The notes: generated from the sequence alone by a model not told the origin. A stretch of DNA of 64,000 nt from an uncultured beta proteobacterium (GCA_963827595.1 CAWHBT010000016.1:172803-236802), one strand, 5' to 3'. Shown: positions 36,408-64,000, numbered from the stretch's first letter. Translations and numbers: made by a program.

Positions 36408-36422
36408 CGTTCGTCTCCAAAA

Positions 36423-36511: not shown

Positions 36512-36527
36512 CGGGCACGAAGTGTGC
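36512..36527 (+). promoter_or_regulatory. putative sigma54 promoter
   Basis: 5'-GGGCACGAAGTGTGCG-3' (GG-N10-GC, -12 element GTGC). The -12 GC is 41 nt before ATG 36567. A GTAACTCTTACGCG motif sits at 36490-36503. Confidence 0.45.
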
Positions 36528-36566
36528 GCGTGACACGACCGTGCGCCCGGACGCGACGCGGTACGG

Positions 36567-37328: not shown

Positions 37329-37390
37329 CGCGGCGCGTGCGAGGAGCACCGAGAAGTCCATGATGGTCGAGATACGATCGCGATCAGGGG

Positions 37391-38520: not shown

Positions 38521-38681
38521 GCCTTCAAGCCGCACGCCGCTTGACGGCATAGCTGCCCGGCGCCACATGGTCAGGCTCCTATTGCAGAAATCGCTTCTCA
38601 AAGGGGCTTGTCGTGCCGGCGGTCACTCTCGTTCCCGCTTGCGCGGCAGGCGCCGTACTGCGGTGCTGCTGGCCGGACCAC

Positions 38682-38697
38682 TGCAACTGCCGTACCA
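38682..38697 (-). promoter_or_regulatory. putative sigma54 promoter
   Basis: Minus strand 5'-TGGTACGGCAGTTGCA-3' (GG-N10-GC, perfect TTGCA -12). Upstream of the SLT-SRPBCC operon. Confidence 0.45.
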
Positions 38698-38755
38698 GGC
38701 CGCGCTGCCTTCAGGAATCAAGGGGTTGCTGCGATAGCAGAGAAAATCGCCGCGT

Positions 38756-38788
38756 GTAACGCTTACCGGACACGGGTAAGAGAGGTAC
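38756..38788. promoter_or_regulatory. paired candidate activator sites
   Basis: GTAACGCTTAC-CGG (38756) and GTAAGAGAGGTAC (38776), centres ~21 bp apart and 65 and 86 bp upstream of the 38696 GG. Confidence 0.35.
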
Positions 38789-38838
38789 ATCGGTCGCAGC
38801 GGCCGGCACGCCGGCCCCGGGCCCACGCCCCTTAGGGA

Positions 38839-41800
38839 CTAGTTGCGGGAGTCCGCCCGCGGGATGGATGCCACGGTCCGCCCCGACGGACCGTAGCCGA
38901 TCAGCGCCTGGATCGCGGTGACGAGTCGATCCGCATCAACCGGCTTGCCGACGCGGTCCTGGAACCCGGCCACGCGGAGCCGTTGTCGGTCGACCTGGGT
39001 AAACGCCGTCACCGCGATCGCGGGCACGCGCTCGACGCCGCGCTCGCCCTCCATCGACCGCACGCGCGCAAGAACGGCGAATCCGTCCTCGTCCGGCATC
39101 GCGAGATCGAGCAACAGCACGTCGGGACGGCTCCCGGGAAACAGTTCGTCCAGTCGGGCGAGGAGCGCCTCGCCCGACGCGAAAAGCTCGACGCTCGCAC
39201 CCGCCTGCCGGAGCACGAGTCCGACGGTGTCGCGCGCATCAGGATCGTCGTCCACGAGGAACACGCCGAACCCGGTCAGACGCCCCGGGGCATGCACGCG
39301 CTCGGGCGCTGCCGGCACCCGCTCGGCCTCCACGCCGGGAGGCGGTACCGGCAGGTCGACGCTGAAGGTGGCGCCCCGACCCGGACCCTCGCTTTCGGCG
39401 CGGGCCTCGCCACCGTGCAGCTCGATGATGTTTCGCACCAGCGCGAGACCGATCCCGAGCCCGCCCGCGCGGCGGGTGGTCGAGGTATCGGCCTGCGTGA
39501 ACCGTTCGAAAACGTGCGGCAGGAACTCCGGCGCGATCCCCGCACCGTTGTCGCGCACCGCGAGCCGGATGCGGTCGCCGACGCGCCGCACCGCGGTCTC
39601 GATCATGCCGTCCTGCGGCGTGAACTTGATCGCGTTCGACAGCAGATTCGTGAGCACCTGCTGCAGACGGACCGGGTCGCCGTCGACCGTGATCCGCGGC
39701 TGGCCGAGCGTCGCGCGCAGCTCGATCCGCTTCGCGGCGGCGGCCGGCCGGGCGATCTCGATCGCGGCGTGCACGACGTCGACCAGGTTGATGGCGTGCC
39801 GCTCGAGGGTGAGCTTGCCGCTCATGCTCCGCGAGGTATCCAGGATGTCGTCGATGAGCCGTGCCTGGTGCTCGACGTTGCGCTTGATCGCGGCGGTGGC
39901 GCGCTCGAGGAGGCCCGCCTCGAGCGGCCGGGTGCTCGCGAGCAGGTGGCCCCACCCGCGCAGCGCATTGAGCGGCGAGCGCAGCTCGTGCGAGACGATC
40001 GCGAGAAACTCATCCTTCGCGCGATTGGCGCGTTCGGCTTCCTCCCGCAGCTGCTGCTCCTCGGCGACCAGGATCTCGAGCTCGCGCTCGGCCCGCTTGC
40101 GCTCGGTGATATCGGTGGCCACGCCGACGAGCCCCACGATGCGGCCCTGCTCGTCGCGCAGCGGCGACTTCGTGGTGAGATAGGTCCGCGAGCCGACAGC
40201 ACCAGGGAAGACTTCCTCCACGGTGAGCGATTGGCCCGATTCGATGACGACCCGGTCGTGCTCGGCCTTCGCCCGCCCTGCCTCGAGGTCGGTGGCGAGC
40301 TCGAGGCTGCTCCGGCCGAGAAGCTCGCGCTCTTCCTTGCCGGTGGCGCGCACGTACGCCGCGTTCACCATCAGCAGCCGACCCTCGACGTCCTTGGCAA
40401 AGATGAGCTCCGACGTGCTCGCGGTGATCGTGCCGAGGAGGTGGGTGCGCTCGCGCAGCGCGGCGGTCGCCTGCTCCAGCGCCGCCGTGCGCTCGATCAC
40501 GCGGGCGTCGAGCTCGACGTAGGCGCGGCGCATGGCGCGCTCGGCGACCCGGCGCTGGGACGCGTCGTGAACGATGAGCACCGCGCCGGTGAACTCCCCG
40601 CGCGGATCGCGGATCGGCGCCGCGCTGAGATCGACCGGATGCAACCGCCCTTCCGCGACCCGGAGCGCCGGCTCGCCCTCGCCGAGCGCGATCTCGCCCG
40701 ACTGCAGCGCGCGGTCGAGGGGCGACTCGGTCTCCATCCCGGTGTGCTCGTCGACGACGTGCAGCAGCTCGCCGACGGCGCGTCCGACGGCGGCGGCCTC
40801 GGAGCAGCCAGTCAGTCGTTGCGCAGCGGTGTTCAAGAACCTGACTCGCCCGGAGCGGTCGGTGGCGATCACGCCGTCGCCGATGCTCGCGAGGACGACC
40901 CGGAGCGACTCGCGCTGGGCGCGGGCGTCGTCCTCGGCACGTTGGCGCCGGGTGTTCATGCGATCGACCTCGCGGGCGACCCAGAGCGTGAGCGCCCCGA
41001 GCCCGGCGATCGTCAACAGCACGAGCATGCCCTGGCCCAGCGGCTCGTCCACGGCGCCGTAGTACTGCCCCGCCAGCTGGAGCAGATGCGCGACGATCGG
41101 GACGACGATCGCCGCCGGCAGGAGCCAGCGGCTCATCACCGCGCCCGGCCGCTCGCTCGACAGCAGGTCGAGCAGCCACGCGTCCGGGCGCGCGGCGAGC
41201 AGGCTCGTGCCGAGCAGCAGGAAGGCGATCGCGCTCGGCAGCCCCATCCCGAAGAGCGGCGCGACGCCGTACAGCAGCAGCAGGCGGAAGCTGAGCCCGA
41301 CGAGGGCAAGGCTCGCGATCGCAACGATCGCGCCCGCTATCACGCGGTGCGCCAACTCGACCCGGCGCGCCGCGAGGGGCGAGAGCACGATCCCGGCCGC
41401 AACCAGCAGGAAGGTCGCCGCGGTGACCTCCGGCATCAGCCTGGGGATGTCGGCGTTGCCCCCCAGCCCCAGAAACCCGAGATCCAGTCCGGTCTGGATC
41501 CCCAGGACGTGGCCGGCGAGCATCAGCGCCGCGATCGCGGCTACAACGCCGGCGCCGATCCGCGCCCGACGCTGCGCCGGCTCGGTGCGCCGCCACGCGG
41601 CGGCCAGCGCCCAGCTCGCGATCAGGAACGACAACGCGGTGGACAGCTGCGCCGAAGGGAAGTCGGCGCCGAACGTCCGCAGGAACTCCAAGTCGATCAG
41701 CCAGCCGGCGACGACGCCGAGCATGATCGCCGCGACCAGCGCGTTGCCGACGCGGGCGAGCGTCGCCAGCGCCCGGCGCGTCGCCGCCTCGCGCTCCGTC

Positions 41801-41886
41801 AGCGGCCTTGCCGTCGCGCCGGTGCGATTGGCCGACGACACGGTCTCGGGTGCAGACGCGGGGTCGCTGGGGACGGCGTTCGGCAT
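38839..41886 (-). CDS. membrane-bound hybrid sensor histidine kinase (multi-TM sensor, 3 PAS, HisKA, HATPase_c, receiver)
   Basis: 1015 aa with ~8 predicted TM helices at the N-terminus. H-box FLAIVSHELRSPLNAL, NLLSNAIKFT, DNGAGI, GLGIGLALV, receiver VFLVDDDPDARD...LLLDLAMPDEDG...KP. Confidence 0.85.
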   Translation of the reverse strand: MPNAVPSDPASAPETVSSANRTGATARPLTEREAATRRALATLARVGNALVAAIMLGVVAGWLIDLEFLRTFGADFPSAQLSTALSFLIASWALAAAWRRTEPAQRRARIGAGVVAAIAALMLAGHVLGIQTGLDLGFLGLGGNADIPRLMPEVTAATFLLVAAGIVLSPLAARRVELAHRVIAGAIVAIASLALVGLSFRLLLLYGVAPLFGMGLPSAIAFLLLGTSLLAARPDAWLLDLLSSERPGAVMSRWLLPAAIVVPIVAHLLQLAGQYYGAVDEPLGQGMLVLLTIAGLGALTLWVAREVDRMNTRRQRAEDDARAQRESLRVVLASIGDGVIATDRSGRVRFLNTAAQRLTGCSEAAAVGRAVGELLHVVDEHTGMETESPLDRALQSGEIALGEGEPALRVAEGRLHPVDLSAAPIRDPRGEFTGAVLIVHDASQRRVAERAMRRAYVELDARVIERTAALEQATAALRERTHLLGTITASTSELIFAKDVEGRLLMVNAAYVRATGKEERELLGRSSLELATDLEAGRAKAEHDRVVIESGQSLTVEEVFPGAVGSRTYLTTKSPLRDEQGRIVGLVGVATDITERKRAERELEILVAEEQQLREEAERANRAKDEFLAIVSHELRSPLNALRGWGHLLASTRPLEAGLLERATAAIKRNVEHQARLIDDILDTSRSMSGKLTLERHAINLVDVVHAAIEIARPAAAAKRIELRATLGQPRITVDGDPVRLQQVLTNLLSNAIKFTPQDGMIETAVRRVGDRIRLAVRDNGAGIAPEFLPHVFERFTQADTSTTRRAGGLGIGLALVRNIIELHGGEARAESEGPGRGATFSVDLPVPPPGVEAERVPAAPERVHAPGRLTGFGVFLVDDDPDARDTVGLVLRQAGASVELFASGEALLARLDELFPGSRPDVLLLDLAMPDEDGFAVLARVRSMEGERGVERVPAIAVTAFTQVDRQRLRVAGFQDRVGKPVDADRLVTAIQALIGYGPSGRTVASIPRADSRN

Positions 41887-41910
41887 ACCGGAGTGATTCG
41901 TAAGGTCCTA

Positions 41911-41927
41911 AGCAGGAGTTATACCAG
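41911..41927 (-). promoter_or_regulatory. weak sigma54-like element
   Basis: Minus strand 5'-TGGTATAACTCCTGCT-3'. The -12 GC is only ~26 nt before ATG 41886 and there is no SD, so support is low. Confidence 0.25.
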
Positions 41928-41979
41928 CCTGGGAGGGGCCCACGCGTGCGGCGGAGCACCATGGCCGGCGCGCGGCGAC

Positions 41980-41995
41980 GGGCATGCGGCTTGCG
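41980..41995 (+). promoter_or_regulatory. putative sigma54 promoter
   Basis: 5'-GGGCATGCGGCTTGCG-3', near-identical to the ferritin promoter core at 55980 (GGCACGCGGCTTGC). Caveat: the -12 GC is only 16 nt before the annotated asmA ATG. Confidence 0.4.
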
Positions 41996-45092: not shown

Positions 45093-45108
45093 CGCAACCG
45101 CCGTGCCC
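45093..45108 (-). promoter_or_regulatory. putative sigma54 -24/-12 promoter
   Basis: Minus strand 5'-GGGCACGGCGGTTGCG-3', exact GGCAC-N5-TTGC. The -12 GC is 61 nt before ATG 45033, immediately downstream of the terminator at 45118-45146. Confidence 0.65.
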
Positions 45109-45743: not shown

Positions 45744-47198
45744 CTAGGCGGGGGTGGTGCGCCCGACCGTCGCGGCGCCGGACTTGGCCGTCGCCGGCGG
45801 CGGGCCGACCTCTCCTTCCGCCGCCAACTCCGGCGGCGAAGGGGTGACGCCCTTCTCCGCGGCCGCCTCCGCGCTGTAGGCCGTGAGCTTGTTGTAGAGC
45901 GTCTTCAGGCTGATGCCGAGCATCTCCGCCGCCTTGCGCTTCACGTTGCCGCACTCCGCAAGCGTCGCCTCGATCAGCCGCCGGTTGACCTCCTCGAGCG
46001 TCGTGCCGATCCGCACGGTGAGCAGCGGCGACCGCGTGGGCTCGACGAGTTCCTCGGGCGCGAGCTCCAGGTCGATCACCTTGTCGGCGAGGATGTGCGC
46101 GCGCTGGACGTAGTTCTTCAGCTCGCGCACGTTGCCCGGCCAGCTGTGCGCGTAGAGCGCAGCGATGGCCGCCGGCGCGAACACCTTGCTCGTGCCCTCC
46201 TCCTCGTTCAACCGGTCGAGGAAGTGCTGGGCGAGGATCTCGATATCGGTGCCGCGCTCGCGCAGCAGCGGCATCTGGATCGGGAACACGTTGAGCCGGT
46301 GGAAGAGGTCCTCCCGCAGCTTGCCTTCGGCGACCGCCTTCTCCGGCACGCGGTTGGTCGCGGCGATCATCCGGACGTCGGTCGCGATCGGCGTGTTCAT
46401 CCCGACGCGCATGAAGGTGCCGGTCTCGAGCACGCGCAGGAGCTTGACCTGGAGCTCGTGCGGCATCTCGGTGATCTCGTCGAGGAACAGCGTGCCGCCG
46501 TGGGCACGCTCGAAGAACCCCTTGTGCTGGCGATCGGCGCCGGTAAAGCTGCCCTTTTCGTGGCCGAAGAGCTCGCTCTCGATGAGCTGCGGCGACACCG
46601 CGCCGCAGTTGAGCGGCAGGAACGGCGCGCGCTTGCGCCGGCTGAGCTCGTGGATCGTCTGCGCGGCGAGCTCCTTGCCGGTACCGCTCTCGCCGATGAG
46701 CAGCACGGTGGCGGAGGTCGGCGCGACGCGCCCGAGCTGGTCGTAGAGCTTCTGGATCGGCGGCGACTGGCCGAGGATGTGGCCGAACCGGCCCAGCTTG
46801 CGCAACTCCTGCCGCAGCTCGCCGATCTGCGCGCGCAGCTCGTCCGGACGCGGCACGCGCCGCAGGATCGCCTTCAGCCGCTCGACGTCCGCAGGCTTGA
46901 CGAGATAGTCGGTCGCGCCGGCGCGCAGCGCCTCGATCGCGCTCTCGGTGCTCGCGTAGCCGGTCATGACGACGAACTCGGTCGAATCGCGCCGCTCGAG
47001 GTCGGTGACGAGCTCGATGCCCTGCCCGTCGGGCAGGATGAGGTCGGTCAGCAGCACGTCCGGGGCGAGACGCGTCAGCTGAATGCGCGCGGCGCGCAAC
47101 GAGTCGGCGGTCGCGACCGTGAAGCCCTCCCCTTTGACGAACTCCGCGAGCCAATCGAGCGTTTCCGGGTCGTCATCGACGAGCAGCACGTGCGGCAT
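45744..47198 (-). CDS. sigma54-dependent response regulator (NtrC-family bacterial enhancer-binding protein)
   Basis: Receiver domain (VLLVDDDPE...LLTDLILPDG...KP). AAA+ core with Walker A GESGTGKE, the sigma54-contact loop ELFGHEKGSFTGA (GAFTGA variant), and R-finger/Walker B DEI. C-terminal Fis-type HTH KRKAAEMLGISLKTLYNKL. Confidence 0.9.
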   Translation of the reverse strand: MPHVLLVDDDPETLDWLAEFVKGEGFTVATADSLRAARIQLTRLAPDVLLTDLILPDGQGIELVTDLERRDSTEFVVMTGYASTESAIEALRAGATDYLVKPADVERLKAILRRVPRPDELRAQIGELRQELRKLGRFGHILGQSPPIQKLYDQLGRVAPTSATVLLIGESGTGKELAAQTIHELSRRKRAPFLPLNCGAVSPQLIESELFGHEKGSFTGADRQHKGFFERAHGGTLFLDEITEMPHELQVKLLRVLETGTFMRVGMNTPIATDVRMIAATNRVPEKAVAEGKLREDLFHRLNVFPIQMPLLRERGTDIEILAQHFLDRLNEEEGTSKVFAPAAIAALYAHSWPGNVRELKNYVQRAHILADKVIDLELAPEELVEPTRSPLLTVRIGTTLEEVNRRLIEATLAECGNVKRKAAEMLGISLKTLYNKLTAYSAEAAAEKGVTPSPPELAAEGEVGPPPATAKSGAATVGRTTPA

Positions 47199-47320: not shown

Positions 47321-47336
47321 CGGCACGCAACTTGCG
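47321..47336 (+). promoter_or_regulatory. putative sigma54 -24/-12 promoter
   Basis: 5'-CGGCACGCAACTTGCG-3', exact GGCAC-N5-TTGC. The -12 GC is 32 nt before ATG 47367. Confidence 0.65.
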
Positions 47337-47366
47337 TACCATCCGTGCTCGCACAAGGAGAACGCG

Positions 47367-47753: not shown

Positions 47754-48372
47754 TCACGCGCCCCGTCGACGGCGAAGATGCCAGTCCATGATCGGCGTGG
47801 CGGAGACCCCGTGCGCGAGCACTGAAGCGCCGATCACCGCCAGCGTCGCCGCCGCGAGCAGCGGTGCGTCGGCGGGCGCGCCGCGATTCAGCGCGAAGGC
47901 GAGCCAGTAGAGGGAGCCGAGCCCGCGCACCCCGAACCATTGGAGCAGCCCCCGCTCCCGCACCGACACCGATCCCCGACCAGCGACACCGCCACCGCGA
48001 CCGGACGGGCAACCAGGAGCACGAAGACGGCGAACCCCGCCGCGACCGCGGCGAGCGCGATCGTCACGACCAACGCCGGACCCGCGAGGCGCAGCGGCAC
48101 CCGCCACGCCGGGTCGGCGAGCCGGACGCCGAGCCGCAAGCCCACGCTGAAGAGCGACAGGACCACGCCGATCGCGGCGGTGCCTTCGACGAGGGGCAGG
48201 TGATCCGCGACATCGATGTCCAGCAGCCCGAGGCCCCGCGGCCGAGAGCGTCGCCGCAAGCGAGATAGAGGATCGCCGCGCTGAACAGCAGTCGCTCGAT
48301 CGCGGCGCCGGCCGGCGCCATGAGCAGCAGCAACGCGCCGGCGGCGAGGAACCATCCGGTGAGAAGACTCAT
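47754..48372 (-). pseudogene. cation:proton antiporter (CPA1-like) remnant with frameshifts and an internal deletion
   Basis: Three consecutive frames give MSLLTGWFLAAGALLLLMAPAGAAIERLLFSAAILYLACGDALG / PRGLGLLDIDVADHLPLVEGTAAIGVVLSLFSVGLRLG...LLVARPVAVAVSLVG / SVSVRERGLLQWFGVRGLGSLYWLAFAL...IMDW. Only ~205 aa in total, whereas the family normally has >400. Confidence 0.6.
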
Positions 48373-48413
48373 GCGTTCGACCCCGCAAGCAAGTCGGACG
48401 CTAACCCGCCCGC

Positions 48414-48445
48414 GTAACTTCTTCAGTACCTCCGGCAAAACCTAC
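48414..48445. promoter_or_regulatory. paired candidate activator sites
   Basis: GTAACTTCTTC (48414) and GCAAAACCTAC (48435). Centres are 21 bp apart, 72 and 51 bp upstream of the 48491 GG. Confidence 0.4.
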
Positions 48446-49799: not shown

Positions 49800-49815
49800 G
49801 GGCACGCGCGTTGCA
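49800..49815 (+). promoter_or_regulatory. putative sigma54 -24/-12 promoter
   Basis: 5'-GGGCACGCGCGTTGCA-3', exact GGCAC-N5-TTGCA. The -12 GC is 65 nt before ATG 49879. Confidence 0.65.
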
Positions 49816-49878: not shown

Positions 49879-50103
49879 ATGAACTGGGATCGGATCGAAG
49901 GCAACTGGAAGCAGGTCAAGGGCAAGGTGAAGGAGCAGTGGGGCAAGCTGACCGACGACGAGCTCGACGTCATCGCCGGCAAGCGCGACCAGCTCATCGG
50001 CAAAGTGCAGGAGCAGTACGGCATCTCCAAGGACGAGGCCGAGCGCCAGGTCCAGACGTTCGAGGAAGGCCTCCGCGACATCGACACCCGCAACCCCTCC
50101 TAG
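49879..50103 (+). CDS. CsbD-family general stress protein
   Basis: SD AAGGAG. MNWDRIEGNWKQVKGKVKEQWGKLTDDELDVIAGKRDQLIGKVQEQYG is a near-textbook CsbD domain. Confidence 0.9.
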   Translation: MNWDRIEGNWKQVKGKVKEQWGKLTDDELDVIAGKRDQLIGKVQEQYGISKDEAERQVQTFEEGLRDIDTRNPS

Positions 50104-50112
50104 GAGACGGCA

Positions 50113-50646
50113 ATGAACCGTAAACCCATCATCGCAGCGCTCGTCGCGCTCGGACTGGCGGCGGCCGGGCCGGCGCTGGCGGAAGACCGGATACCCCGCG
50201 AGGCCTACAAGGCCGAGAAGGACCGGATCGAAGCCGAGTACAAGGCCGCCAAGGAGCGGTGCAACAAGCTGTCCGGGAACGCCGAGGACGTGTGCGAGGC
50301 CCAGGCGAAGGCCGACCAGCGCATCGCCGAAGCCGACCTCGATGCGCGCAACAAGGGCACCGCAAAGGCGCGGGCCGACGCACGGCTGGTGCGCGCCGAC
50401 GCGCAGTACGACGTCGCGAAGGAGAAGTGCGACGACCTCTCCGGCAACGCCAAGGACGTGTGCACCAAGGACGCGAAAGCCGCCCATGCGCGCGCCAAGG
50501 CCGAAGCGAAGGCCGACCGCAGCGCCGACGCGTCGACGGCGACCCGCGAGACCGACTACCGGGCCGCGCTGGCGCGCTGCGACAAGCTGACGGGCGACCC
50601 GCGCGCGACCTGCGTCGCCGAAACCAAGGTCAAGTACGGTCGGTAG
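50113..50646 (+). CDS. secreted Lys/Ala-rich protein with three C-x2-L-[ST]-G-x5-C repeats
   Basis: Signal peptide ...AAAGPALA|E. Repeats are CNKLSGNAEDVC, CDDLSGNAKDVC and CDKLTGDPRATC, each preceded by a Y-x3-K-E/A-[KR]-C context. No family name recalled. Confidence 0.6.
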   Translation: MNRKPIIAALVALGLAAAGPALAEDRIPREAYKAEKDRIEAEYKAAKERCNKLSGNAEDVCEAQAKADQRIAEADLDARNKGTAKARADARLVRADAQYDVAKEKCDDLSGNAKDVCTKDAKAAHARAKAEAKADRSADASTATRETDYRAALARCDKLTGDPRATCVAETKVKYGR

Positions 50647-50680
50647 CCCGTTCGCCAACCATCCTCTTCAGGAGGTACAG

Positions 50681-50845
50681 ATGATCTACTGGGCAGCTGT
50701 CTTTCTCGTGATCGGCCTGATCGCCGCCGTGTTCGGATTCACCGGGCTCGCCGGCACCGCGGTGAACATCGCCTGGATCCTGTTCGTCATCGGTCTGATC
50801 CTCGCCGTCGTCTTCTTCGTCATGGGTCGCCGACCGCCGGTCTAG
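50681..50845 (+). CDS. DUF1328 (UPF0391/YtjA) small membrane protein
   Basis: Not in the track (54 aa). SD AGGAGG. MIYWAAVFLVIGLIAAVFGFTGLAGTAVNIAWILFVIGLILAVVFFVMGRRPPV. Confidence 0.8.
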   Translation: MIYWAAVFLVIGLIAAVFGFTGLAGTAVNIAWILFVIGLILAVVFFVMGRRPPV

Positions 50846-50946: not shown

Positions 50947-50977
50947 GTAACAGCTACACCAGCGCTGCAGTTCCTAC
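50947..50977. promoter_or_regulatory. orphan pair of GTAAC-N2-yTAC-type motifs
   Basis: GTAACAGCTAC (50947) and GCAGTTCCTAC (50967), centres 20 bp apart. The second 11-mer is identical to 51971-51981 upstream of rpoN. No promoter was found at the usual distance. Confidence 0.3.
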
Positions 50978-51423
50978 AGGGGTTGTACAGCGACCGGGCG
51001 CCGCTGGCGCACCGCGCGATCGCGCGCCGCGCGCAACGTGCCGAGACAAGCGAGCAGGTGCTCGAGCTCGTGGGCGATGACCTGCTGCATCGCGGGCGGC
51101 AGCGGGCGTTCGAGCGCATCGCAGTAGGCATAGAGCACCACCGATTCCCGCCGCTCACTCTGCTCGAGGATCGCCACGTCGTCGGGCGGAGCGACCCGGG
51201 GCCTCGGTTCGGCGTGGGTGCCCCGACCCGGCGCGAGACTCCGTTCGTCGGCGAGCGTGCGCAGCGCCGCGGTCGCCCGGCCGTAGCGCAGGGCGCGATC
51301 GAGCAGCACCACGCGGGCTTCTTCGCCGCGCACCTCGCTGGCGGCGACGTGGAACGCCGCCTCGCCGTCGCTGGTCGCGTCGATCAGGCCGTCGAGGTAG
51401 TCGTCGATCTCGCGGTCGGTCAT
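50974..51423 (-). CDS. DUF2383 / PA2169-family four-helix-bundle (ferritin-like) protein
   Basis: 149 aa from MTDREIDDYLDGLIDATSDGEAAFHVAA. Second-half DDVAILEQSERRES...YCDALERPLP matches the family pattern as I recall it. Confidence 0.55.
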   Translation of the reverse strand: MTDREIDDYLDGLIDATSDGEAAFHVAASEVRGEEARVVLLDRALRYGRATAALRTLADERSLAPGRGTHAEPRPRVAPPDDVAILEQSERRESVVLYAYCDALERPLPPAMQQVIAHELEHLLACLGTLRAARDRAVRQRRPVAVQPL

Positions 51424-51502: not shown

Positions 51503-51784
51503 GCGATCGAATTACCGACCGGCCACTTCATCCCCGTGCACACCGAACCACCCGTTCCGCCGCCGCCGAACCGCGACCCTGAACCGCCGCGCCCGCCGGT
51601 GCCCCCGGACACGCCCTACCCCGGCCGGCCGATCGACGACCCGCCGCCGGATCGCCCGGCCGATCCGCCGCCGCCGATCATCGCCGCGCCAGTAGCGCGT
51701 CTCGTTGGCACAGGCCTTGCTCGAAGTCCTTGGTCGGGCGCCGCGCGTTGGGCGGCTGGCGCCGAGCTGGAAGGCGACTCCGCG

Positions 51785-51958
51785 ATGCGACTTCTCGACC
51801 CCAGATTCCGCTACGTGCCCGCGGCGAAAACCGACGTGCTCGCGACGTGGCGGCGCTTTGGTTTCCGTCCGATCACCGACTCCGAGCGCCGCGCGCGTCA
51901 GCGCGCGGTTGCGCCCGGGGCGAGTATTTCTCCGCGGCGATGGGCGATATCGCCCTGA
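51785..51958 (+). CDS. possible 57-aa protein
   Basis: MRLLDPRFRYVPAAKTDVLATWRRFGFRPITDSERRARQRA... The first ~40 codons have good GC3, but the SD is weak and the gene is uncertain. Confidence 0.3.
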   Translation: MRLLDPRFRYVPAAKTDVLATWRRFGFRPITDSERRARQRAVAPGASISPRRWAISP

Positions 51959-51970
51959 CGGGCCAGGCGC

Positions 51971-52000
51971 GCAGTTCCTACCTCCGTCGGTAAGTTCTTC
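51971..52000. promoter_or_regulatory. paired candidate activator sites upstream of rpoN
   Basis: GCAGTTCCTAC (51971) and GTAAGTTCTTC-GCG (51990). Centres are 19 bp apart, 61 and 42 bp upstream of the 52037 GG. Confidence 0.35.
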
Positions 52001-52035
52001 GCGCGATTCCGACACCACCGGCGTCGCAGCACGAC

Positions 52036-52051
52036 GGGCACGGGCCTTGCA
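52036..52051 (+). promoter_or_regulatory. putative sigma54 -24/-12 promoter in front of rpoN itself
   Basis: 5'-GGGCACGGGCCTTGCA-3', exact GGCAC-N5-TTGCA. The -12 GC is 73 nt before ATG 52123. Confidence 0.6.
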
Positions 52052-52122
52052 GGGTACGTAAGGAACCGCGCCGCCGATGTGCGGCGATGCGCCCTGACGA
52101 CCCGGGCAACAGGAGGACACGG

Positions 52123-53565
52123 ATGGGTCAGACCATGGAGCTGCGGCTGCGGCAGCACCTCACGCTCACGCCACAGCTGCAGCAGGCGCTGCGGCTGCTG
52201 CAGCTCTCCGCGCTCGAGTTCGAGCAGGAGATGCGGGAAGCGCTCGACACCAATCCGTTTCTCGAGGACGAGGAGGACGCAGCCCGCGTCAACGGGTCGG
52301 GCTCCGAACCGGCGACGGCGCCGGCGGAAGCTGCCCCTCCCGATTCGGGCGACGTCGCGCCCGCGCCGTCGGAGGCTCCGGACACGCTGCCCGGGATCGA
52401 CGGCCTGCCGCGGAACGCGAACGCGCACGACGGCGACGACACCGACTGGACCGAGTGGTCGGAGGCGCAGCTCACGCTGCGCGACCATCTCCGCCGGCAG
52501 CTCCTGCTCTCGCCGATGGGCGAGCGGGACCGGGGACTCGCGCACCTGGTGATCGACGCGCTGGACGCCGACGGCTATCTCAAGCTGAGCTTCGACGAGC
52601 TCGCGGCGCTGGTGCCGGCGGAGCACGACGTCGAGCCCGACGATCTCGCCGCCGCGCTGCGGCTGGTGCAGACGCTCGAGCCGACGGGCGTCGGCGCGCG
52701 GTCGCTCCAGGAATGCCTGCTGCTCCAGCTGCAGGCGCTGCCGGAGGGGACGACCGGCCGGCCCATCGCCCTCGCGCTCGTCGGCGAGCACATCGCGCTG
52801 CTCGCGGCGCGCGAGTTCGTGCGCCTGCAACAGCTGCTCGGTTGCAGCGACTCCGATCTGCACGTGGCGCGCAACCTGATCCGCTCGTTGAACCCGAAGC
52901 CGGGAGACCGGTACGGCCCGGACGACACGCGCTACGTCGTGCCGGACGTCATCGTGAGCAAAGTCCGCAACCGCTGGACCGCGACCATCAATCCGGCGGT
53001 CCAGCCGCGGATCCGCATCAACCGCGCCTACGCCGACCTGGTCGGTGCCCGCGCCACCGGCGGCCAGCAAATGTCGCGGCAGCTCCAGGAGGCGCGGTGG
53101 CTGATCCGCAACATGCAGCAGCGGTTCGTCACCATCCAGCGGGTCGCCGATGCGATCGTCGCGAAGCAGCGCAACTTCTTCGAGTACGGCGAAGTGGCGA
53201 TGAAGCCGCTCGGCCTGAAGCACATCGCCGCCCAGCTCGGGCTGCACGAGTCCACGGTCTGCCGGGTCACGAACGGCAAGTACATGGCGACCGCGCGCGG
53301 GCTGTTCGAGTTCAAGCGGTTCTTCTCGCGGCAGCTTGCGACCGACAACGGCGGCGCCTGCTCGGCAACGGCCATCCGTGCGCTGCTCAAGGAGCTGATC
53401 GCCAGCGAGCGGCCGGCGAATCCGCTGTCGGACGCCCAGCTCGCACGCCTGCTCGCCGGCCAGGGACTGCACGTGGCGCGGCGGACGGTGACCAAGTACC
53501 GGACGCTCATGCGGGTGCCGAGCGTCGAGCTGCGGCGCGCGTCGGCGCGCACCGCGGCGGCGTAG
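52123..53565 (+). CDS. rpoN: RNA polymerase sigma-54 factor
   Basis: SD AGGAGG. Region I MELRLRQHLTLTPQLQQALRLLQLSALEF, an acidic linker, a core-binding domain, the HTH HESTVCRVTNGKYM and the RpoN box ARRTVTKYR. Confidence 0.92.
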   Translation: MGQTMELRLRQHLTLTPQLQQALRLLQLSALEFEQEMREALDTNPFLEDEEDAARVNGSGSEPATAPAEAAPPDSGDVAPAPSEAPDTLPGIDGLPRNANAHDGDDTDWTEWSEAQLTLRDHLRRQLLLSPMGERDRGLAHLVIDALDADGYLKLSFDELAALVPAEHDVEPDDLAAALRLVQTLEPTGVGARSLQECLLLQLQALPEGTTGRPIALALVGEHIALLAAREFVRLQQLLGCSDSDLHVARNLIRSLNPKPGDRYGPDDTRYVVPDVIVSKVRNRWTATINPAVQPRIRINRAYADLVGARATGGQQMSRQLQEARWLIRNMQQRFVTIQRVADAIVAKQRNFFEYGEVAMKPLGLKHIAAQLGLHESTVCRVTNGKYMATARGLFEFKRFFSRQLATDNGGACSATAIRALLKELIASERPANPLSDAQLARLLAGQGLHVARRTVTKYRTLMRVPSVELRRASARTAAA

Positions 53566-53587
53566 GGCGCGCCCGACGGAGACGCCG

Positions 53588-54154
53588 ATGGCCAAGCTCG
53601 TGGTGGGACGGTTCGACAACATCGACGACGTGAAGCGCGTCCTCGACGCGCTGCCGCGGGCGGGATTCACGCGCGCGGAGTTCGGCACCTTCTACGCCGC
53701 GCCGCCCGGCCAGCACCAGCTCTATCCGATCGGCGGCGACGCGTACAGCGATGAGGGTGCGCGGGACGCCGGCAAGGGCGCGGCGACCGGCGCCGCGGTG
53801 GGGGGCGCCGCCGGCCTAGCGCTCGGGGCGTTCGCCGCTGCGGCACTGCCCTTCGCGGGGATCGCGGCAGCGCTGGCCGCGGCCGGAATCGGCGCGTACA
53901 CCGGCTCGCTCATGGGCGCGTTGTCCCGGACGCACGCACCGGATGCGCATGCGGCGACGACCGAGCACCCGGTGGAGCAGCCAGGCGGCCCGCGCGTCGC
54001 GGTCAACGTCGACCGGCCCGGGACCGAGCCGGTGGCCATCGACCTGCTCGAGCGGTACGGAGCGAAAGACTTCAGCCGCGCCGAAGGCGAGTGGCACGCG
54101 CGCGCCTGGCTGGACTACGACCCGCGCGTCGACGAGGCCGACGAAACGATCTGA
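53588..54154 (+). CDS. hypothetical membrane protein (YflT/GSP17M-like N-terminal domain plus glycine-zipper helices)
   Basis: MAKLVVGRFDNIDDVKRVLDALPRAGF resembles the general-stress-protein-17M fold opening. The central GAATGAAVGGAAGLALGAFAAAALPFAGIAAALAAAGIGAYTG is TM/glycine-zipper. It starts 22 nt after the rpoN stop. Confidence 0.45.
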   Translation: MAKLVVGRFDNIDDVKRVLDALPRAGFTRAEFGTFYAAPPGQHQLYPIGGDAYSDEGARDAGKGAATGAAVGGAAGLALGAFAAAALPFAGIAAALAAAGIGAYTGSLMGALSRTHAPDAHAATTEHPVEQPGGPRVAVNVDRPGTEPVAIDLLERYGAKDFSRAEGEWHARAWLDYDPRVDEADETI

Positions 54155-54164
54155 GCACCCCTGC

Positions 54165-55208
54165 ATGCCCGCCCCCCTCACGCGTCGACCGCGCCACGCT
54201 CCGCGCTTCTCCAGCACGTACCTCCTCGCCTTGGCGTTCGCGGGCGCTGGCGTAGCGGGGTCGGTGGCGCAAGTACCGGCCCCGCCGCCACGCCCCACTG
54301 ACGCCGAAATCCTGGCTTCGATCGTCGCAGTCGGCGTGCGTGCGGTCGCGCATGCGCGCAACTCGCATGGGCAGGGGCGCGAACGCGAGGGGACCGGCAT
54401 CGTGATCGAGCCGGGCGGTCACGTCCTCACCAGTGCGCTCCTCGTGCAGGAGGCCGATTCGATCGTCGTCACCACGGCGGACGCCCGGAGCGTGCGTGCC
54501 GCCGTTGCAGCCACGGACGAGACGACGGGTGTCGCGATCCTCCGTCCGGCGGAAGGTCTCGGCGTCCGGCCGATGCCGCTCGGCGCGTCGGCCGAGCTCA
54601 AGATCCCCGCGGCGGTCACGGTCGCTGCCGCGGGCCGGGCCCGCCGGATCGCGATCGCCACCGTCGTCGCGCAACGCGAGTTCGCCGGCCACTGGGAGTT
54701 CCTGGTGGACGACGCGCTGTTCACGACCCCGGGCGTGCCGCAGCCGGACGGCGCAGCGCTCGTCGACGGGAGCGGCAAGCTGGTCGGCGTGGGCTGCCTG
54801 CTCCTCGCCGACGTCCGTGGGATCGCCGCGACAGCGACCACGGCCAATCTATTCATCCCGGTGGAGCATTTTCAGTCTGCGCTCGCCAAGCTCACCCCCG
54901 CCGGCGGCAATCGGCTGGCGCGCCGTCCCTGGCTCGGCCTGGTCATGGACAAGTCCGGCGATGAGCTCACCATCACCAAGGTGCCGCCCGGCAGTCCCGC
55001 GGAACGTGCCGGACTACGCATCGGTGACGTGGTGACCGCAGTGAACGGGAACCTCGTCGTTACGCGTGCCGTGCTGTACCGCCGCCTTTGGCGGGAACAC
55101 CCGGGAGCGGACATCGTGCTCACGATCCGTCGCGACGGCGCACCGCACGAGGTGCGGCTGCGCGCGATGGACCAGCAGGACTACCTGATCCACCGCGCGC
55201 AGCTGTAA
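54165..55208 (+). CDS. trypsin-like (S1C/DegP-type) domain plus PDZ protein with a degenerate catalytic triad
   Basis: 347 aa with a signal/TM segment. Fold markers are GTGIVIEPGGHVLTSALLV, DETTGVAILR and FTTPGVPQPDGAALVDGSGKLVGVG, then the PDZ LGLVMD...ITKVPPGSPAERAGLRIGDVVTAVNG. The positions aligning to His (TNAHV) and Ser (GNSGGP) read TSALL and QPDGAA. Confidence 0.7.
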   Translation: MPAPLTRRPRHAPRFSSTYLLALAFAGAGVAGSVAQVPAPPPRPTDAEILASIVAVGVRAVAHARNSHGQGREREGTGIVIEPGGHVLTSALLVQEADSIVVTTADARSVRAAVAATDETTGVAILRPAEGLGVRPMPLGASAELKIPAAVTVAAAGRARRIAIATVVAQREFAGHWEFLVDDALFTTPGVPQPDGAALVDGSGKLVGVGCLLLADVRGIAATATTANLFIPVEHFQSALAKLTPAGGNRLARRPWLGLVMDKSGDELTITKVPPGSPAERAGLRIGDVVTAVNGNLVVTRAVLYRRLWREHPGADIVLTIRRDGAPHEVRLRAMDQQDYLIHRAQL

Positions 55209-55249: not shown

Positions 55250-55576
55250 CTATTTCGCCGGCGCCGAGTGCGCTTCGGCGCTCTGGTCGCGACCGCCCTG
55301 CGGCGGCGCAGCGCCCGGCGCCTGCTTCACGTTGTTCGGCATGTTGGTATCGCTGACGCGGCCGGCCGACTGTGGGGGCCGCTCGCGGCGATACCGCTCG
55401 GCGACCCGGTCCTGGGCTTGCTCGAGCAGCTCCTTCTGGCGTTGCAGCTGCGCTTCCTCCTGCACGCGCTTCTCCTGCTGCGCGGCAAGTTCCTGCGGCG
55501 TCGGTGGAGGGAGCTTGGCGTCAGCGATCGGCGCGGACAGTGCGGCCGCGACCACGAACAGGCAGGCGAGCTTCAT
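55250..55576 (-). CDS. secreted hypothetical 108-aa protein (Gln/Glu-rich coiled segment)
   Basis: SD GGAGA. Signal peptide MKLACLFVVAAALSAPIADA|K, then PQELAAQQEKRVQEEAQLQRQKELLEQAQDRV. Confidence 0.5.
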   Translation of the reverse strand: MKLACLFVVAAALSAPIADAKLPPPTPQELAAQQEKRVQEEAQLQRQKELLEQAQDRVAERYRRERPPQSAGRVSDTNMPNNVKQAPGAAPPQGGRDQSAEAHSAPAK

Positions 55577-55656: not shown

Positions 55657-55947
55657 CTAGTCCGCGCCCGCGAAGTCCCAGGTGACGCCGCGGCTCGCCG
55701 TGGTGCAGGTGACGACCCGGTTGCCGATCTCGAGCCGAACGACGAAGCCGCTCCCGTCGCTGAGGTAACTGGGTTTGTCGACGCTCACGATGCGGCCGAA
55801 CGCTCGGCCCTCCCGAGCGTCGGGATCCGTCACCCAGACCCGGCGCCCCGGGGTGATTTTGTCGTTGGCCACCGCAGCGCCGCCCCTCCGGCGCACCGGA
55901 CCAGCTGGGTTGTGCCCTCCCTGGGCGCAGCTGGGCCGAGGCACCAT
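55657..55947 (-). CDS. small hypothetical protein (start uncertain; the 71-aa version from GTG 55872 is preferred)
   Basis: VANDKITPGRRVWVTDPDAREGRAFGRIVSVDK...VVRLEIGNRVVTCTTASRGVTWDF. High GC3 and a beta-rich look. SD-like GGAGGGG lies 12 nt before the GTG. No family recognised. Confidence 0.35.
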   Translation of the reverse strand: MVPRPSCAQGGHNPAGPVRRRGGAAVANDKITPGRRVWVTDPDAREGRAFGRIVSVDKPSYLSDGSGFVVRLEIGNRVVTCTTASRGVTWDFAGAD

Positions 55948-56029: not shown

Positions 56030-56581
56030 ATGTCCAAACAGCCGTTCCTGACCGACATCAAAACCATCCGCGCCCGCGCCCGCCGCCACATCGAGGAGGG
56101 CGCAGTGACCGAGAACTACGGTGCCGACAAGCCCACCGTGCTGCGGCTGCTGAACGAGGCGCTCGCCACCGAGATCGTCTGCACGCTGCGCTACAAGCGC
56201 CACTACTTCATGGCGAAGGGCCTCACCTCGGCGGGGGTCGCCGCGGAGTTTCTCGAGCACGCCAAGGAGGAGGAAGGCCACGCCGACCAGTTCGCCGAGC
56301 GGATCGTCCAGCTCGGCGGCGAGCCGAACTTCGACCCCGAGGGGCTCACCACCCGCAGCCACGCGGAGTACATCGAGGGCAAGTCGCTCGTCGACATGAT
56401 CCGCGAGGACCTCGTGGCCGAGCGGGTGGCGATCGAGAGCTACCGCGACATGATCCGCTACGTTGGCGAGGGCGACCCGACGACGCGGCGGCTGCTCGAG
56501 GACGTGCTCGCGGTCGAAGAGGAGCACGCCGAGGACCTGGTCACCCTCATCGAGGGGATCGGCCGGAAGCAGAACGGTTGA
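56030..56581 (+). CDS. ferritin-like / bacterioferritin-family protein
   Basis: SD AAGGAGAG. LLNEALATEIVCTLRYKRHYF, EHAKEEEGHADQFAERI and AVEEEHAEDL are di-iron ligand helices (E, ExxH x2). Confidence 0.85.
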   Translation: MSKQPFLTDIKTIRARARRHIEEGAVTENYGADKPTVLRLLNEALATEIVCTLRYKRHYFMAKGLTSAGVAAEFLEHAKEEEGHADQFAERIVQLGGEPNFDPEGLTTRSHAEYIEGKSLVDMIREDLVAERVAIESYRDMIRYVGEGDPTTRRLLEDVLAVEEEHAEDLVTLIEGIGRKQNG

Positions 56582-56652: not shown

Positions 56653-57286
56653 TCAGCGGCGCGCCAGGTTCTCGGACGCGAACTCCCAGTTCAGCAGCTT
56701 CTCGACCACCGCCTTGACGTGCTTGTCCCGCTTGTTCTGGTAGTCGAGGTAGTAGGCGTGCTCCCAGACGTCGACCGTCAGCAGCGGCGTCTTGCCCTGC
56801 ACGACCGGCGTGTGCGCGTCGGGGGTCGTGACGATCTCGAGCGCGCCGCCGTTCGCGACCAGCCACGCCCAGCCGCTGCCGAAGTGCCCGGTGGCCGCGC
56901 GCCGCAAACGCCTTCATGAACGCGTCGTAGCCGCCGAGATCACGGTCGAGTAGGCGGCGCAGCGCCTCGCTCGGTTTCCCGGGCTTCGGCGTCAGGCTCT
57001 CCCAGTAGAACGCGTGGTTCAGCGCCTGACCAGCGTTGTTGAAGACTTCGGCGCGAGCCGGGTCGTCCCGGGTGCGCTTGACGATCTCCAGCAACGGCAG
57101 GCGCTCGAGGTCGGTGCCCGCGACCAGCTCGTTGAGCTTCTCGACGTAGGCGCGATGGTGCTTGCCGTGATGGAGCTCGATCGTGCGCTTCGAGATCACC
57201 GGTTCGAGCGCGTGCCTCGCCCATGGCAGGGCGGGGAGGGTGAAGGGGCCGGGCGCGGTGGCTGCGCGGGGGAGTGGAGCGTTCAT
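56653..57286 (-). pseudogene. sodB: Fe/Mn superoxide dismutase interrupted by a 1-nt insertion
   Basis: The N-terminal frame reads FTLPALPWARHALEPVISKRTIELHHGKHHRAYV...NNAGQALNHAFYW...YDAFMKAFAA. The C-terminal frame reads AATGHFGSGWAWLV...LLTVDVWEHAYYLDYQN. The shift falls in GCGGCG-C-GCGGCC near 56900, and the span is 3n+1 nt. Confidence 0.85.
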
Positions 57287-62458: not shown

Positions 62459-62686
62459 ATGACACGACTGACAACGCTCGACCGCATCGCGCTCATCTTG
62501 CTGATCGTCGGTGGCATCAACTGGGGACTCGTCGGCGCCTTCGACGTCAATCTCGTCACCTTGCTCTTCGGCCCGCGTTCGCCACTCAGCCGGTTCATCT
62601 ACATCGCGGTCGGCGCCGCGGCGCTCTATGCGATCTACCGGCTAGCCCGGCCGGCGTCGCGGCGCTCGATGCGATCTACAAGCTAG
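62459..62686 (+). CDS. DUF378 membrane protein
   Basis: SD AAGGGAG. LDRIALILLIVGGINWGLVGAFDVNLV is the family signature. The C-terminus is altered by the 41-bp tandem duplication. Confidence 0.75.
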   Translation: MTRLTTLDRIALILLIVGGINWGLVGAFDVNLVTLLFGPRSPLSRFIYIAVGAAALYAIYRLARPASRRSMRSTS

Positions 62687-62699
62687 TCCGGCCGGCGCC
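62618..62699 (+). repeat. 41-bp tandem direct duplication
   Basis: GCGGCGCTCTATGCGATCTACCGGCTAGCCCGGCCGGCGTC (62618) is followed by GCGGCGCTCGATGCGATCTACAAGCTAGTCCGGCCGGCGCC (62659), with 5 mismatches. The period is not a multiple of 3, and the gene's stop lies in copy 2. Confidence 0.75.
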
Positions 62700-62714
62700 A
62701 CGGTCGGTTCGCGG

Positions 62715-63179
62715 TCAGCTCGACCGGAGCGGCTGCGCCGGAGCCAGCGGACCGGCCAGGCCGGCCACCACGGCGAGCAGGCGATCCGGATCGACCGGCT
62801 TCGCGAGATGCGCTTGATAGCCGGCGCGGAGGACGCGCGCGAGGTCGTCCGCCGTCGTACGCCCCGTCACCGCCGCGGCGGGGAGCTGCTGCGCGGTACC
62901 GCGCGGCATGCTCCGGATCGCCTGGATCAGCGCGTAGCCGTCGCCGCCCTGCATGCCGATGTCCGACAGCAGCACGGTGGGCCACCACCACGCCACGGTC
63001 GCCAGCGCCTCGGCCGTACTCGAGGCGGAGCGTACGTCGGCCGCGGCCGCGGCGAGGAGTGCCACGAGGAACTCGCGCTCGTCGGCCTCGTCTTCGACCA
63101 CAAGCACGCGAACCCCGCGCAGCTCGGTCCGGGGCCAGCGCTGGTCGGTCGGCGGTCGGGTAAGGTGGGTCGTTTTCAT
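62715..63179 (-). CDS. single-domain response regulator (CheY-like receiver)
   Basis: VRVLVVEDEADEREFL...VLLSDIGMQGGDG...HLAKP: acidic pocket, phospho-Asp and conserved Lys are all present. Confidence 0.8.
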   Translation of the reverse strand: MKTTHLTRPPTDQRWPRTELRGVRVLVVEDEADEREFLVALLAAAAADVRSASSTAEALATVAWWWPTVLLSDIGMQGGDGYALIQAIRSMPRGTAQQLPAAAVTGRTTADDLARVLRAGYQAHLAKPVDPDRLLAVVAGLAGPLAPAQPLRSS

Positions 63180-63210
63180 CGCTACGACGCCGAGTTCCTA
63201 ACCGTCTGCT

Positions 63211-63226
63211 AGCACTTGGCGTGCCC
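63211..63226 (-). promoter_or_regulatory. putative sigma54 promoter
   Basis: Minus strand 5'-GGGCACGCCAAGTGCT-3' (GG-N10-GC). The -12 GC is 33 nt before ATG 63179. Confidence 0.45.
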
Positions 63227-63328
63227 GGCCGCTGCGCGGTGAACCCGACCACGGGGCACGTAAATTCGCGCATGCGGGGAGGACGCGCAAAGTCGGCTAG
63301 ACTTTCCTCCGGCTGATAGGGGTAGCGG

Positions 63329-64000
63329 GTGCCGGACCAGTTGGGCGCAGGCGGCGGGCTGGAGGCGGTGGCGGCGCACTTCGCCGCCCGTCGCGAGGCG
63401 CTGCTGATGAGGTGGCGCGAAGCGGCGGATGCCGATCCGGAGTCGACCACCGCGTCGGTGCTGTCGCGCGCCCAGTTCTACGACCACATTCCAGAGGTTC
63501 TCGACGCATTCGTGCGCCGGCTGCGCGCGCGGCACTCGGGCGAGCGCAGCGCGGCCGCCGCCGAGCGGCGCGACGGCGCCGCGGGCCACGGCATGCACCG
63601 CTGGCAGCAGGGCTACCAGCAGCGCGAGGTCATGCGCGAATGGCGGCACCTGCAGCTCGCCCTCGTCGACGAGCTCGAGCGGTTCGCCCTCGCCCACCAC
63701 GAAGCCGACCGGGAGGCGCTGGCGTTGGCGCGCCGCGAGCTCGCCGAACTGTGCGCCGAGGGCGTGTGTGAGAGCGCCGACCAGTACGCGCGGCTGCAGC
63801 GGACGGAAGCGGCCGGACGGGTGCGGGACCTCGAGGGCGCGCTCGCGGATCTCGGCACCCTCGAGACGCGTCGCGCCGAGGCGTGGCGGGAGGCCGCGCA
63901 CGACCTCCGCGGCAGCTTCGGCGTCGTGAAAAACGCCGCGGCGGCGCTGAACCACACCAGCGCGAGCGAGGGCACCCGCGCGCACTCGCTTGCGACCCTG
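63329..64000 (+). CDS. sensor histidine kinase, 5' partial (RsbRD-N-like sensor domain plus HisKA; runs off the window)
   Basis: Not in the ORF track because there is no stop in the window. GTG 63329 is the first start after three in-frame stops. The frame reads ...LLMRWREAADADPESTTASVLSRAQFYDHIPEVLDAFVRRL...WRHLQL..., a coiled coil, then the H-box WREAAHDLRGSFGVV. Confidence 0.65.
   Translation, partial: MPDQLGAGGGLEAVAAHFAARREALLMRWREAADADPESTTASVLSRAQFYDHIPEVLDAFVRRLRARHSGERSAAAAERRDGAAGHGMHRWQQGYQQREVMREWRHLQLALVDELERFALAHHEADREALALARRELAELCAEGVCESADQYARLQRTEAAGRVRDLEGALADLGTLETRRAEAWREAAHDLRGSFGVVKNAAAALNHTSASEGTRAHSLATL

Follow-up and report, generated by a model that had tools for sequence, protein, structure and literature searches.

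The stretch of DNA analysed here, referred to as the window, comprises 64,000 nucleotides (nt; 64 kb) from an uncultured beta proteobacterium, read on one strand and annotated except for a few stretches. Near 52 kb it carries an rpoN gene for a sigma-54 factor, and this gene, the promoters in front of it and the island of genes around it are the subject of this text. The gene and the elements directly upstream are as follows, with coordinates counted from the first letter of the window.

52123-53565, plus strand: rpoN2-type sigma-54 gene, full length, 480 amino acids (aa), identified by Pfam domains, NCBIfam models and identity to Azoarcus RpoN2
52037-52051 (preceded by a G at 52036), plus strand: -24/-12 sigma-54 promoter of rpoN2 (GGCACGGGCCTTGCA, GGCAC-N5-TTGCA), identified by motif match and orthologous sites
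51706-51721 (core 51707-51721), plus strand: second, upstream sigma-54 promoter (TGGCACAGGCCTTGCT, a perfect TGGCAC-N5-TTGCT), 64 nt before a small open reading frame (ORF)
51979-51999, no strand assigned: palindromic block TACC-N6-GGTAAGTTCTTC, non-coding and conserved, located about 40-58 nt ahead of the -24 element of rpoN

The rpoN gene starts with an ATG 6 nt downstream of an AGGAGG. Its product comprises the activator-interacting region I, the core-binding domain and the DNA-binding domain with helix-turn-helix (HTH) and RpoN box of the sigma-54 family (Pfam Sigma54_AID, Sigma54_CBD and Sigma54_DBD; PF00309, PF04963 and PF04552; E 3e-15 to 4e-58), and it passed the NCBIfam sigma-54 models, scoring 589 bits for NF009118 against a cut-off of 396. 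In a multiple alignment region I, the HTH and the RpoN box (ARRTVTKYR) were all intact. This agrees with the original prediction for this DNA, which had described a full-length rpoN with these three elements, located outside the canonical order lptB-rpoN-hpf-ptsN. The domains, the alignment and the annotated neighbours likewise confirm the unusual location: no lptB, hpf or ptsN gene was found in the annotated part of the window, and rpoN has neither lptB upstream nor hpf/ptsN downstream. It is preceded instead by a divergent PA2169-like gene and a small ORF and followed by a glycine-zipper gene and a pseudoprotease gene.

The exact GGCAC-N5-TTGCA that had been predicted in front of rpoN was recovered in sense orientation, with 72 nt between the -12 element and the ATG. 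For comparison we used related islands from uncultured soil Betaproteobacteria/Burkholderiales (L001-L005), further related loci including one from Azoarcus (L036), and two loci with canonical context (L006 and L030). A -24/-12 site upstream of rpoN is kept in 11 of 12 related loci; in L001, L002, L004, L005, L036, L037, L039, L041 and L043 it lies 66-117 nt before the rpoN ATG in flanks that have diverged. The exception is the short contig L003, where a distal site about 500 nt ahead of rpoN is the only one. As a perfect site stands before the small ORF and another site before rpoN, two tandem sigma-54 promoters precede the gene. The upstream promoter, which has equivalents in L001 (9471), L002 (9553) and L003 (927), may also read through into rpoN2, and it is probably what had been noted earlier as a motif pair at this place. 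All six loci of the alignment carry the palindromic block, which follows the small ORF and comes before the rpoN promoter; it was not repeated at other island promoters.

An identical RpoN protein is on record from a metagenome-assembled genome in NCBI/ENA. The window protein is 78-86% identical to its counterparts in L001-L005, where the island is syntenic. The closest named proteins are those of Azoarcus olearius, Aromatoleum and relatives (63-66% identity), whose genes are located outside the lptB context in loci that share the rpoN/glycine-zipper pair, a ferritin-like gene and a PLD gene. Identity to Azoarcus RpoN2 (azo1790) is 63%. Azoarcus possesses rpoN1 (azo0504) besides rpoN2, and the latter is induced under N2 fixation together with other sigma-54 targets (PMC3916325). 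The sigma-54 motif published for azo1790 (PMC3916325 supplement) matches the upstream sequence of the A. olearius gene in all but one base. The azo1790 locus of Azoarcus sp. BH72 / A. olearius (Sarkar and Reinhold-Hurek, 2014, PMC3916325) resembles the window in its rpoN/glycine-zipper pair, the PLD gene, the motif before rpoN2 and a ferritin-like gene that has a sigma-54 promoter to itself. The 13 kb seen of this locus differ in containing just 2 sigma-54 sites and no activator, CsbD, DUF1328 or BON genes.

Housekeeping RpoNs encoded in canonical context belong to the same family, have the same domains and presumably read the same promoter consensus, but those included here (from Thiobacillus and another soil betaproteobacterium, with the order lptC-lptA-lptB-rpoN-hpf-ptsN-hprK) are only 44-50% identical to the window protein. 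They formed a separate branch in a neighbour-joining tree that holds no canonical proteins of the same orders, so the phylogeny proposed earlier as a check supports a distinct paralogue within that sampling. The HTH and RpoN box of the window protein carry clade-specific substitutions relative to the canonical proteins. In sequence and context, as judged with this tree, the gene is closer to known second copies, and it has a -24/-12 promoter upstream. The kind of gene is already known: it is a further case of the betaproteobacterial RpoN2 group, that is, of sigma-54 paralogues under sigma-54 control.

It could be argued that this is the sole rpoN of its genome, a housekeeping gene that moved from the lptB-hpf locus into the island. 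All functional motifs are kept in the full-length protein, which passes the general sigma-54 equivalog models; its identity to canonical RpoNs (about 49%) is little below that to Ralstonia RpoN2 (51%), and the genomes scanned for rpoN did not include that of this organism. The scan of representative genomes used query peptide words and gave five related islands and mostly Thiobacillus canonical loci, so that the missing second rpoN match in related genomes is uninformative. We nevertheless regard a relocated sole copy as quite unlikely. The nearest characterised orthologue, azo1790, is explicitly a second copy, and so is the gene of the related Ralstonia module; the clade-specific substitutions speak against it as well; and if every recognisable promoter of a sole sigma-54 gene depended on sigma-54, that gene would face a bootstrapping problem.

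The comparison with Ralstonia involves the putative regulators encoded to the left of rpoN, which are listed here.

45744-47198, minus strand: response-regulator-type sigma-54 activator (receiver, AAA+ domain with GSFTGA, HTH_8), identified by Pfam
47327-47340, minus strand: sigma-54 promoter of the activator gene (TGGTACGCAAGTTGCG), with an identical site 133 nt before the activator gene of L001
33303-36029 and 38839-41886, both minus strand: two hybrid PAS histidine kinases, identified by domain annotation

The activator has the composition of an NtrC-type enhancer-binding protein, with a receiver, a sigma-54 interaction AAA+ domain and a Fis-type HTH, and its loop reads GSFTGA, a variant of GAFTGA. 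It is 63% identical to the activator beside Ralstonia rpoN2, and GSFTGA is common to both. That the linked activators share this non-standard loop suggests a matched pair with RpoN2. The two hybrid PAS kinases are candidate inputs, and the one at 38839 is 35% identical to a kinase in the Ralstonia rpoN2 locus. The promoter of the activator gene overlaps a site on the opposite strand (47322-47335) that faces a 68-aa ORF, both lying within the 19 bp of 47322-47340 (GGCACGCAACTTGCGTACC). Near-overlapping divergent pairs of sigma-54 sites also occur in L001 (15396/15399) and L043 (10575/10589).

In Ralstonia solanacearum, rpoN2 is RSp1671 and the activators are RSp1667/RSp1668 (Ray et al., 2015, PMC4371752; Lundgren et al., 2015, PMC4676750). 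The similarities to the window are a second sigma-54 gene outside lptB-hpf with a -24/-12 promoter upstream, an activator of the same GSFTGA type, a hybrid PAS kinase nearby, and DUF883 and DUF1328 genes behind sigma-54-like sites. Activator identity, the GSFTGA loop, the PAS kinase and these two genes behind their sites are the reasons why we consider the modules homologous. The Ralstonia locus, which lies on the megaplasmid, differs by an RpoN of only 51% identity and by the lack of the glycine-zipper partner, pseudoprotease, ferritin, BON, PLD and superoxide dismutase (SOD) genes in the stretch examined; it has an extra receiver-less activator, and 4 sigma-54 sites in 17 kb compared with 15 in 26 kb here. 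Specialised paralogues beside their targets, paired with particular activators, are also represented by Rhizobium etli rpoN2 and the four rpoN genes of Rhodobacter sphaeroides, as cited in PMC3916325. Those genes are alphaproteobacterial and, as far as seen here, related at family level; instead of stress proteins, their regulons comprise flagella or nitrogen fixation.

Some rpoN genes are described as being autoregulated negatively, through the binding of sigma-54. The window gene might accordingly be a true paralogue whose upstream site is negative, with bound holoenzyme dampening an unrecognised sigma-70 promoter and no positive cascade. At 71% G+C a sigma-70 promoter is difficult to recognise, which makes the absence of one weak evidence against this view, and PMC3916325 cites negative autoregulation for Rhizobium etli rpoN1. 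The site in question is in sense orientation and, with 72 nt to the start codon, has a normal spacing, like other island promoters, and a site of the same kind before the nearby activator gene is kept in L001. Expression of Ralstonia rpoN2 is abolished in an rpoN1 mutant (PMC4371752), and the joint induction of Azoarcus rpoN2 with other sigma-54 targets (PMC3916325) points in the same direction. We thus consider a purely negative role of the site very improbable.

Promoters of this type are not restricted to rpoN and the activator gene. The remaining parts of the island for which sites were recorded individually are the following.

49801-49815, plus strand: sigma-54 promoter of the CsbD / 177-aa / DUF1328 string (genes 49879-50845), kept in L001, L002, L004 and L005
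55609-55623, minus strand: sigma-54 promoter of the 108-aa secreted protein gene (55250-55576, minus strand), with orthologous sites in L001, L002, L004, L005 and L043
55981-55995, plus strand: sigma-54 promoter of the ferritin/Dps-like gene (56030-56581), kept as far as Azoarcus L036
59495-59508, minus strand: sigma-54-type site (loose pattern) before the BON / BON / PLD / SOD string (59451 down to 56653, minus strand)
45094-45107, minus strand: sigma-54-type site 60 nt before a DUF883 (ElaB/YqjD-like) gene, which is followed by holin-like and 118-aa genes
33199-41994, no strand assigned: left part of the island, with sites at 33199 (minus), 35967 (plus), 38683 (minus) and 41981 (plus), preceding genes for a 46-aa peptide, a 124-aa secreted protein, an SLT-domain protein and AsmA

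For the exact pattern GGCAC-N5-TTGCW, 5 matches were counted in the 64 kb where 0.11 would be expected, and none of 100 shuffles reached 5. All five exact sites are intergenic and in sense orientation; they lie between 49.8 and 56.0 kb, 33-72 nt before the start codons of csbD, the small ORF, rpoN, the 108-aa secreted protein gene and the ferritin/Dps-like gene. The looser pattern GGYAYR-N4-TTGC was found 15 times (0.71 expected; maximum of 3 in 100 shuffles), in every case within the 26 kb of 33,199-59,508. When these 15 sites and a near-match at 48491 were checked for position, 13 of the 16 lay 15-140 nt upstream of a same-strand start codon, most of them with a Shine-Dalgarno sequence. Most of the sites of the looser pattern stand before stress-type genes (CsbD, DUF1328, DUF883, BON, ferritin-like) or the activator gene. 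Besides the genes behind the left-hand sites, those with a site ahead of them are the DUF883 gene, the 68-aa ORF, the activator gene, an AI-2E transporter gene, csbD with the 177-aa gene and DUF1328, the small ORF, rpoN, the 108-aa secreted protein gene, the ferritin-like gene and the BON / BON / PLD / SOD string. The related islands are equally dense (9-11 sites per 21 kb, 0.14-0.28 expected), and orthologous island promoters are kept while the flanking DNA diverges. For the whole Ralstonia genome, 40 candidate sigma-54 sites were counted in the Ralstonia study. The neighbourhood had been described at the outset as a stress island; this holds, but the island is more than that, being densely packed with sigma-54 promoters and carrying its own activator gene. 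Its gene content is reminiscent of sigma-S-dependent genes of E. coli (osmY, yjbJ, ytjA, elaB/yqjD and dps).

The same sites can be read in another way: RpoN2 could be redundant, with island promoters read by any sigma-54, so that rpoN2 only enlarges the sigma-54 pool or is a drifting duplicate. The island promoters do fit the general consensus, and Ralstonia rpoN2 mutants have no phenotype in the tests done, the role of the gene being called enigmatic (PMC4371752; PMC4676750). On the other hand, the gene, its promoter and the partner gene are kept across orders at 63-86% protein identity, and the GSFTGA loop common to the linked activators suggests a matched pair. Redundancy is possible in our view, though rather unlikely.

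According to our analysis, the window gene is likely an RpoN2-type sigma-54 paralogue that acts as the central regulator of a self-contained sigma-54 module driving the stress-protein island. The parts of this module seen in the window are the GSFTGA activator, the hybrid PAS kinases, rpoN2, and about 13 transcription units, each behind a -24/-12 promoter, among them those of the activator gene, of the small ORF and of rpoN2 with its two downstream partners. The original prediction had inferred a dedicated rpoN paralogue under a sigma-54 promoter, with autoregulation or a cascade. Azoarcus homology, the conserved promoter and the Ralstonia locus lend good comparative support to that inference; for this genome it is a probable reading.

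Several points weigh against this reading. The neighbour-joining tree had no canonical RpoNs from Rhodocyclales and Burkholderiaceae, and Ralstonia/Burkholderia RpoN2 (51%) is barely closer to the window protein than canonical Thiobacillus RpoN (49%). No second rpoN was seen for this organism, whose source genome is outside the species representatives scanned. The island promoters look like ordinary sigma-54 promoters, and their reading by RpoN2 rather than RpoN1 is an assumption. Dyad enumeration over 59 promoter-upstream regions gave orthology-driven recurrences only and no shared activator-binding site upstream of the island promoters, so the activator is assigned to all of them from clustering. 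An rpoS gene is also present in the window and may place the stress genes under additional control. Finally, all statements on expression are carried over by analogy from other species.

If the gene is indeed the centre of such a module, we posit the following course of events. A stress or energy signal would be sensed by the kinases, leading to phosphorylation of the activator, which would open sigma-54 closed complexes at the island promoters. As rpoN2 and the activator gene are themselves sigma-54-dependent, their first expression needs a pre-existing sigma-54, most likely the housekeeping RpoN1 as in Ralstonia. Once on, the module would amplify itself by a cascade with positive feedback. 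Its output would be small envelope and cytoplasmic protectants (CsbD, DUF1328, DUF883, BON, ferritin/Dps-like, SOD and a PLD-type lipid enzyme), a set that resembles a general-stress or stationary-phase regulon. We infer the signal, the assignment of activator to promoters, a specificity of RpoN2 of its own, and the housekeeping rpoN in this genome.

The genes next to rpoN2 are these.

50974-51423, minus strand: divergent PA2169/DUF2383-like four-helix-bundle gene, with Pfam and NCBIfam scores just under the cut-offs
51785-51958, plus strand: small conserved ORF of 57 aa (MRLLDPRFRYVPAA.TDV..TWRRFGFRPTTESERRARQ in the N-terminal 40 residues), identified by third-codon-position variation
53588-54154, plus strand: glycine-zipper membrane protein gene, 188 aa, partner of rpoN2 in related loci
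54165-55208, plus strand: periplasmic HtrA-like pseudoprotease with a PDZ domain, 347 aa, identified by Pfam and by alignment to HhoA

A DUF2383 gene and a small ORF had been predicted upstream of rpoN, and both genes are present, but the match of the former is weak. Against DUF2383 it scored 28.5 bits (E 1.8e-6; Pfam cut-off 30.8), and against the PA2169 family TIGR02284 it scored 42.5 bits (cut-off 44.8). It occupies the same position in L001, L002, L004 and L005. The small ORF matched no Pfam family and is protein-coding by its substitution pattern, with variation at third codon positions in the alignment of six loci. Its peptide is kept in L001-L005, L042 and L043; it occurs in the lineage of metagenome-assembled genomes only and not in Rhodocyclales or Ralstonia.

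Downstream, the glycine-zipper gene follows rpoN after 22 nt and is itself followed after 10 nt by the gene with Trypsin_2 and PDZ domains, which corresponds to the order and the gaps given earlier. It comes after rpoN2 in L001-L005, L036, L037, L041, L042 and L043. The protein family is small (164 matches, with source names solely 'hypothetical' or 'glycine zipper'). No Pfam domain was found in the 188-aa protein, its weak matches being glycine-zipper families. In the AlphaFold (AF2) model (predicted local distance difference test score, pLDDT, 79) a beta-alpha-beta unit is followed by a two-helix glycine-zipper hairpin and a beta-alpha-beta-beta unit. The protein is thus predicted to be a split beta-alpha-beta cytoplasmic domain with an inserted two-helix hairpin in the membrane. 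A fold search of the model against the PDB returned nothing significant, with ActD of alternative complex III and PII-like proteins as the best matches. The former label 'YflT-like' is not supported: the window protein does not match Pfam YflT (PF11181, general stress protein 17M), 3 of 33 relatives match it with E 0.17 or worse, and no significant PDB fold supports it.

The third gene of the series encodes a protein with a trypsin-like fold and a C-terminal PDZ domain (Trypsin_2, E 4.5e-14; PDZ_2, E 3.9e-13). In the alignment to HhoA all three residues of the S1C catalytic triad are replaced, His by Leu, Asp by Gly and Ser by Asp, which bears out its earlier designation as a pseudo-protease. 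Among 120 homologues His is absent in 120 and Asp in 118, and the close ones also lack Ser; the alignments indicate that loss of the triad is a family trait. This HtrA/PDZ family without catalytic His and Asp is widespread and reaches the Alphaproteobacteria (Skermanella, Rhodoplanes), where its members are annotated as S1C serine proteases; distant members retain Ser. The pseudoprotease gene follows rpoN2 and the glycine-zipper gene in L042 and L043, there with its own sigma-54 site, and is absent from L001-L005. No terminator-like site was found between the three genes. The short gaps of 22 and 10 nt, the lack of such a site and the same order in L042 and L043 support the interpretation of rpoN2, glycine-zipper gene and pseudoprotease gene as an operon.

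Some further features of the island were recorded. The DNA that separates the activator gene from the AI-2E gene contains three ORFs (47754-48438, minus strand) that overlap in different frames and are membrane-protein-like; by translation they read like cation/proton antiporter fragments, which no Pfam match confirms, and they may represent a decayed or mis-assembled gene. A 67-aa ORF (55657-55860, minus strand) between the divergent promoters of the 108-aa protein gene and the ferritin gene is 75% identical in L001 and was assigned to no family; upstream of it lies the sole sigma-70-like consensus in the 7 kb scanned (55971-55943). The Fe/Mn SOD gene (56653-57286, minus strand) has its N- and C-terminal domains in different frames, with the junction at about 56907-56915 in a GC-rich run. 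Its orthologues in L001, L002 and L005 are in frame, and the occurrence of split genes in related long-read contigs (L042) points to assembly indel errors. Further signalling parts of the island may lie at the right edge (62459-64000), where a DUF378 gene is found together with genes for a single-domain response regulator (62715-63179, minus strand) and for an RsbRD_N-domain protein that runs off the window.

Elsewhere in the window, annotation places a surE-pcm-nlpD-rpoS cluster at 14741-18188 (minus strand). A one-base shift of the rpoS frame occurs at about 14840, shortly ahead of region 4.2, and the joined frames match RpoS structures over their full length (E 3e-95); the shift is either an assembly indel or the mark of a pseudogene. 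Since the window carries rpoS, the island does not substitute for an absent one. Ordinary neighbours outside the island are, at 9102-13049, a MoxR ATPase / TgpA transglutaminase cluster and, at 26060-30717, an RND efflux pump (AcrB-type with outer-membrane factor). Origin of the island as a mobile element was considered and rejected: G+C is about 71% throughout (0.67-0.73 along the window), there are no tRNA genes, and synteny is kept in relatives. Rfam and tRNA scans of the window gave no match.

A more far-reaching, speculative extension, which we hold to be doubtful, is an autonomous 'general stress' circuit of the sigma-54 type, made up of RpoN2, the PAS kinases and the GSFTGA activator. 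It would be a counterpart of the RpoS regulon with RpoN2-specific promoter/activator pairing, in which the glycine-zipper protein with its PII-like split domain and the periplasmic pseudoprotease with its PDZ domain couple envelope status to RpoN2 activity. If this were true, no dedicated modulators of a sigma-54 with a link to the membrane would precede these two proteins. Many Betaproteobacteria have a second sigma-54 gene; for this type of sigma factor, whose role is called enigmatic in Ralstonia, the neighbourhood described here suggests a specific, testable function. The usual associations of sigma-54 are with nitrogen, with motility and with a small number of envelope responses. Should the proposed module exist, sigma-54 would also run a broad protective programme in soil Betaproteobacteria, with a built-in cascade and feedback.

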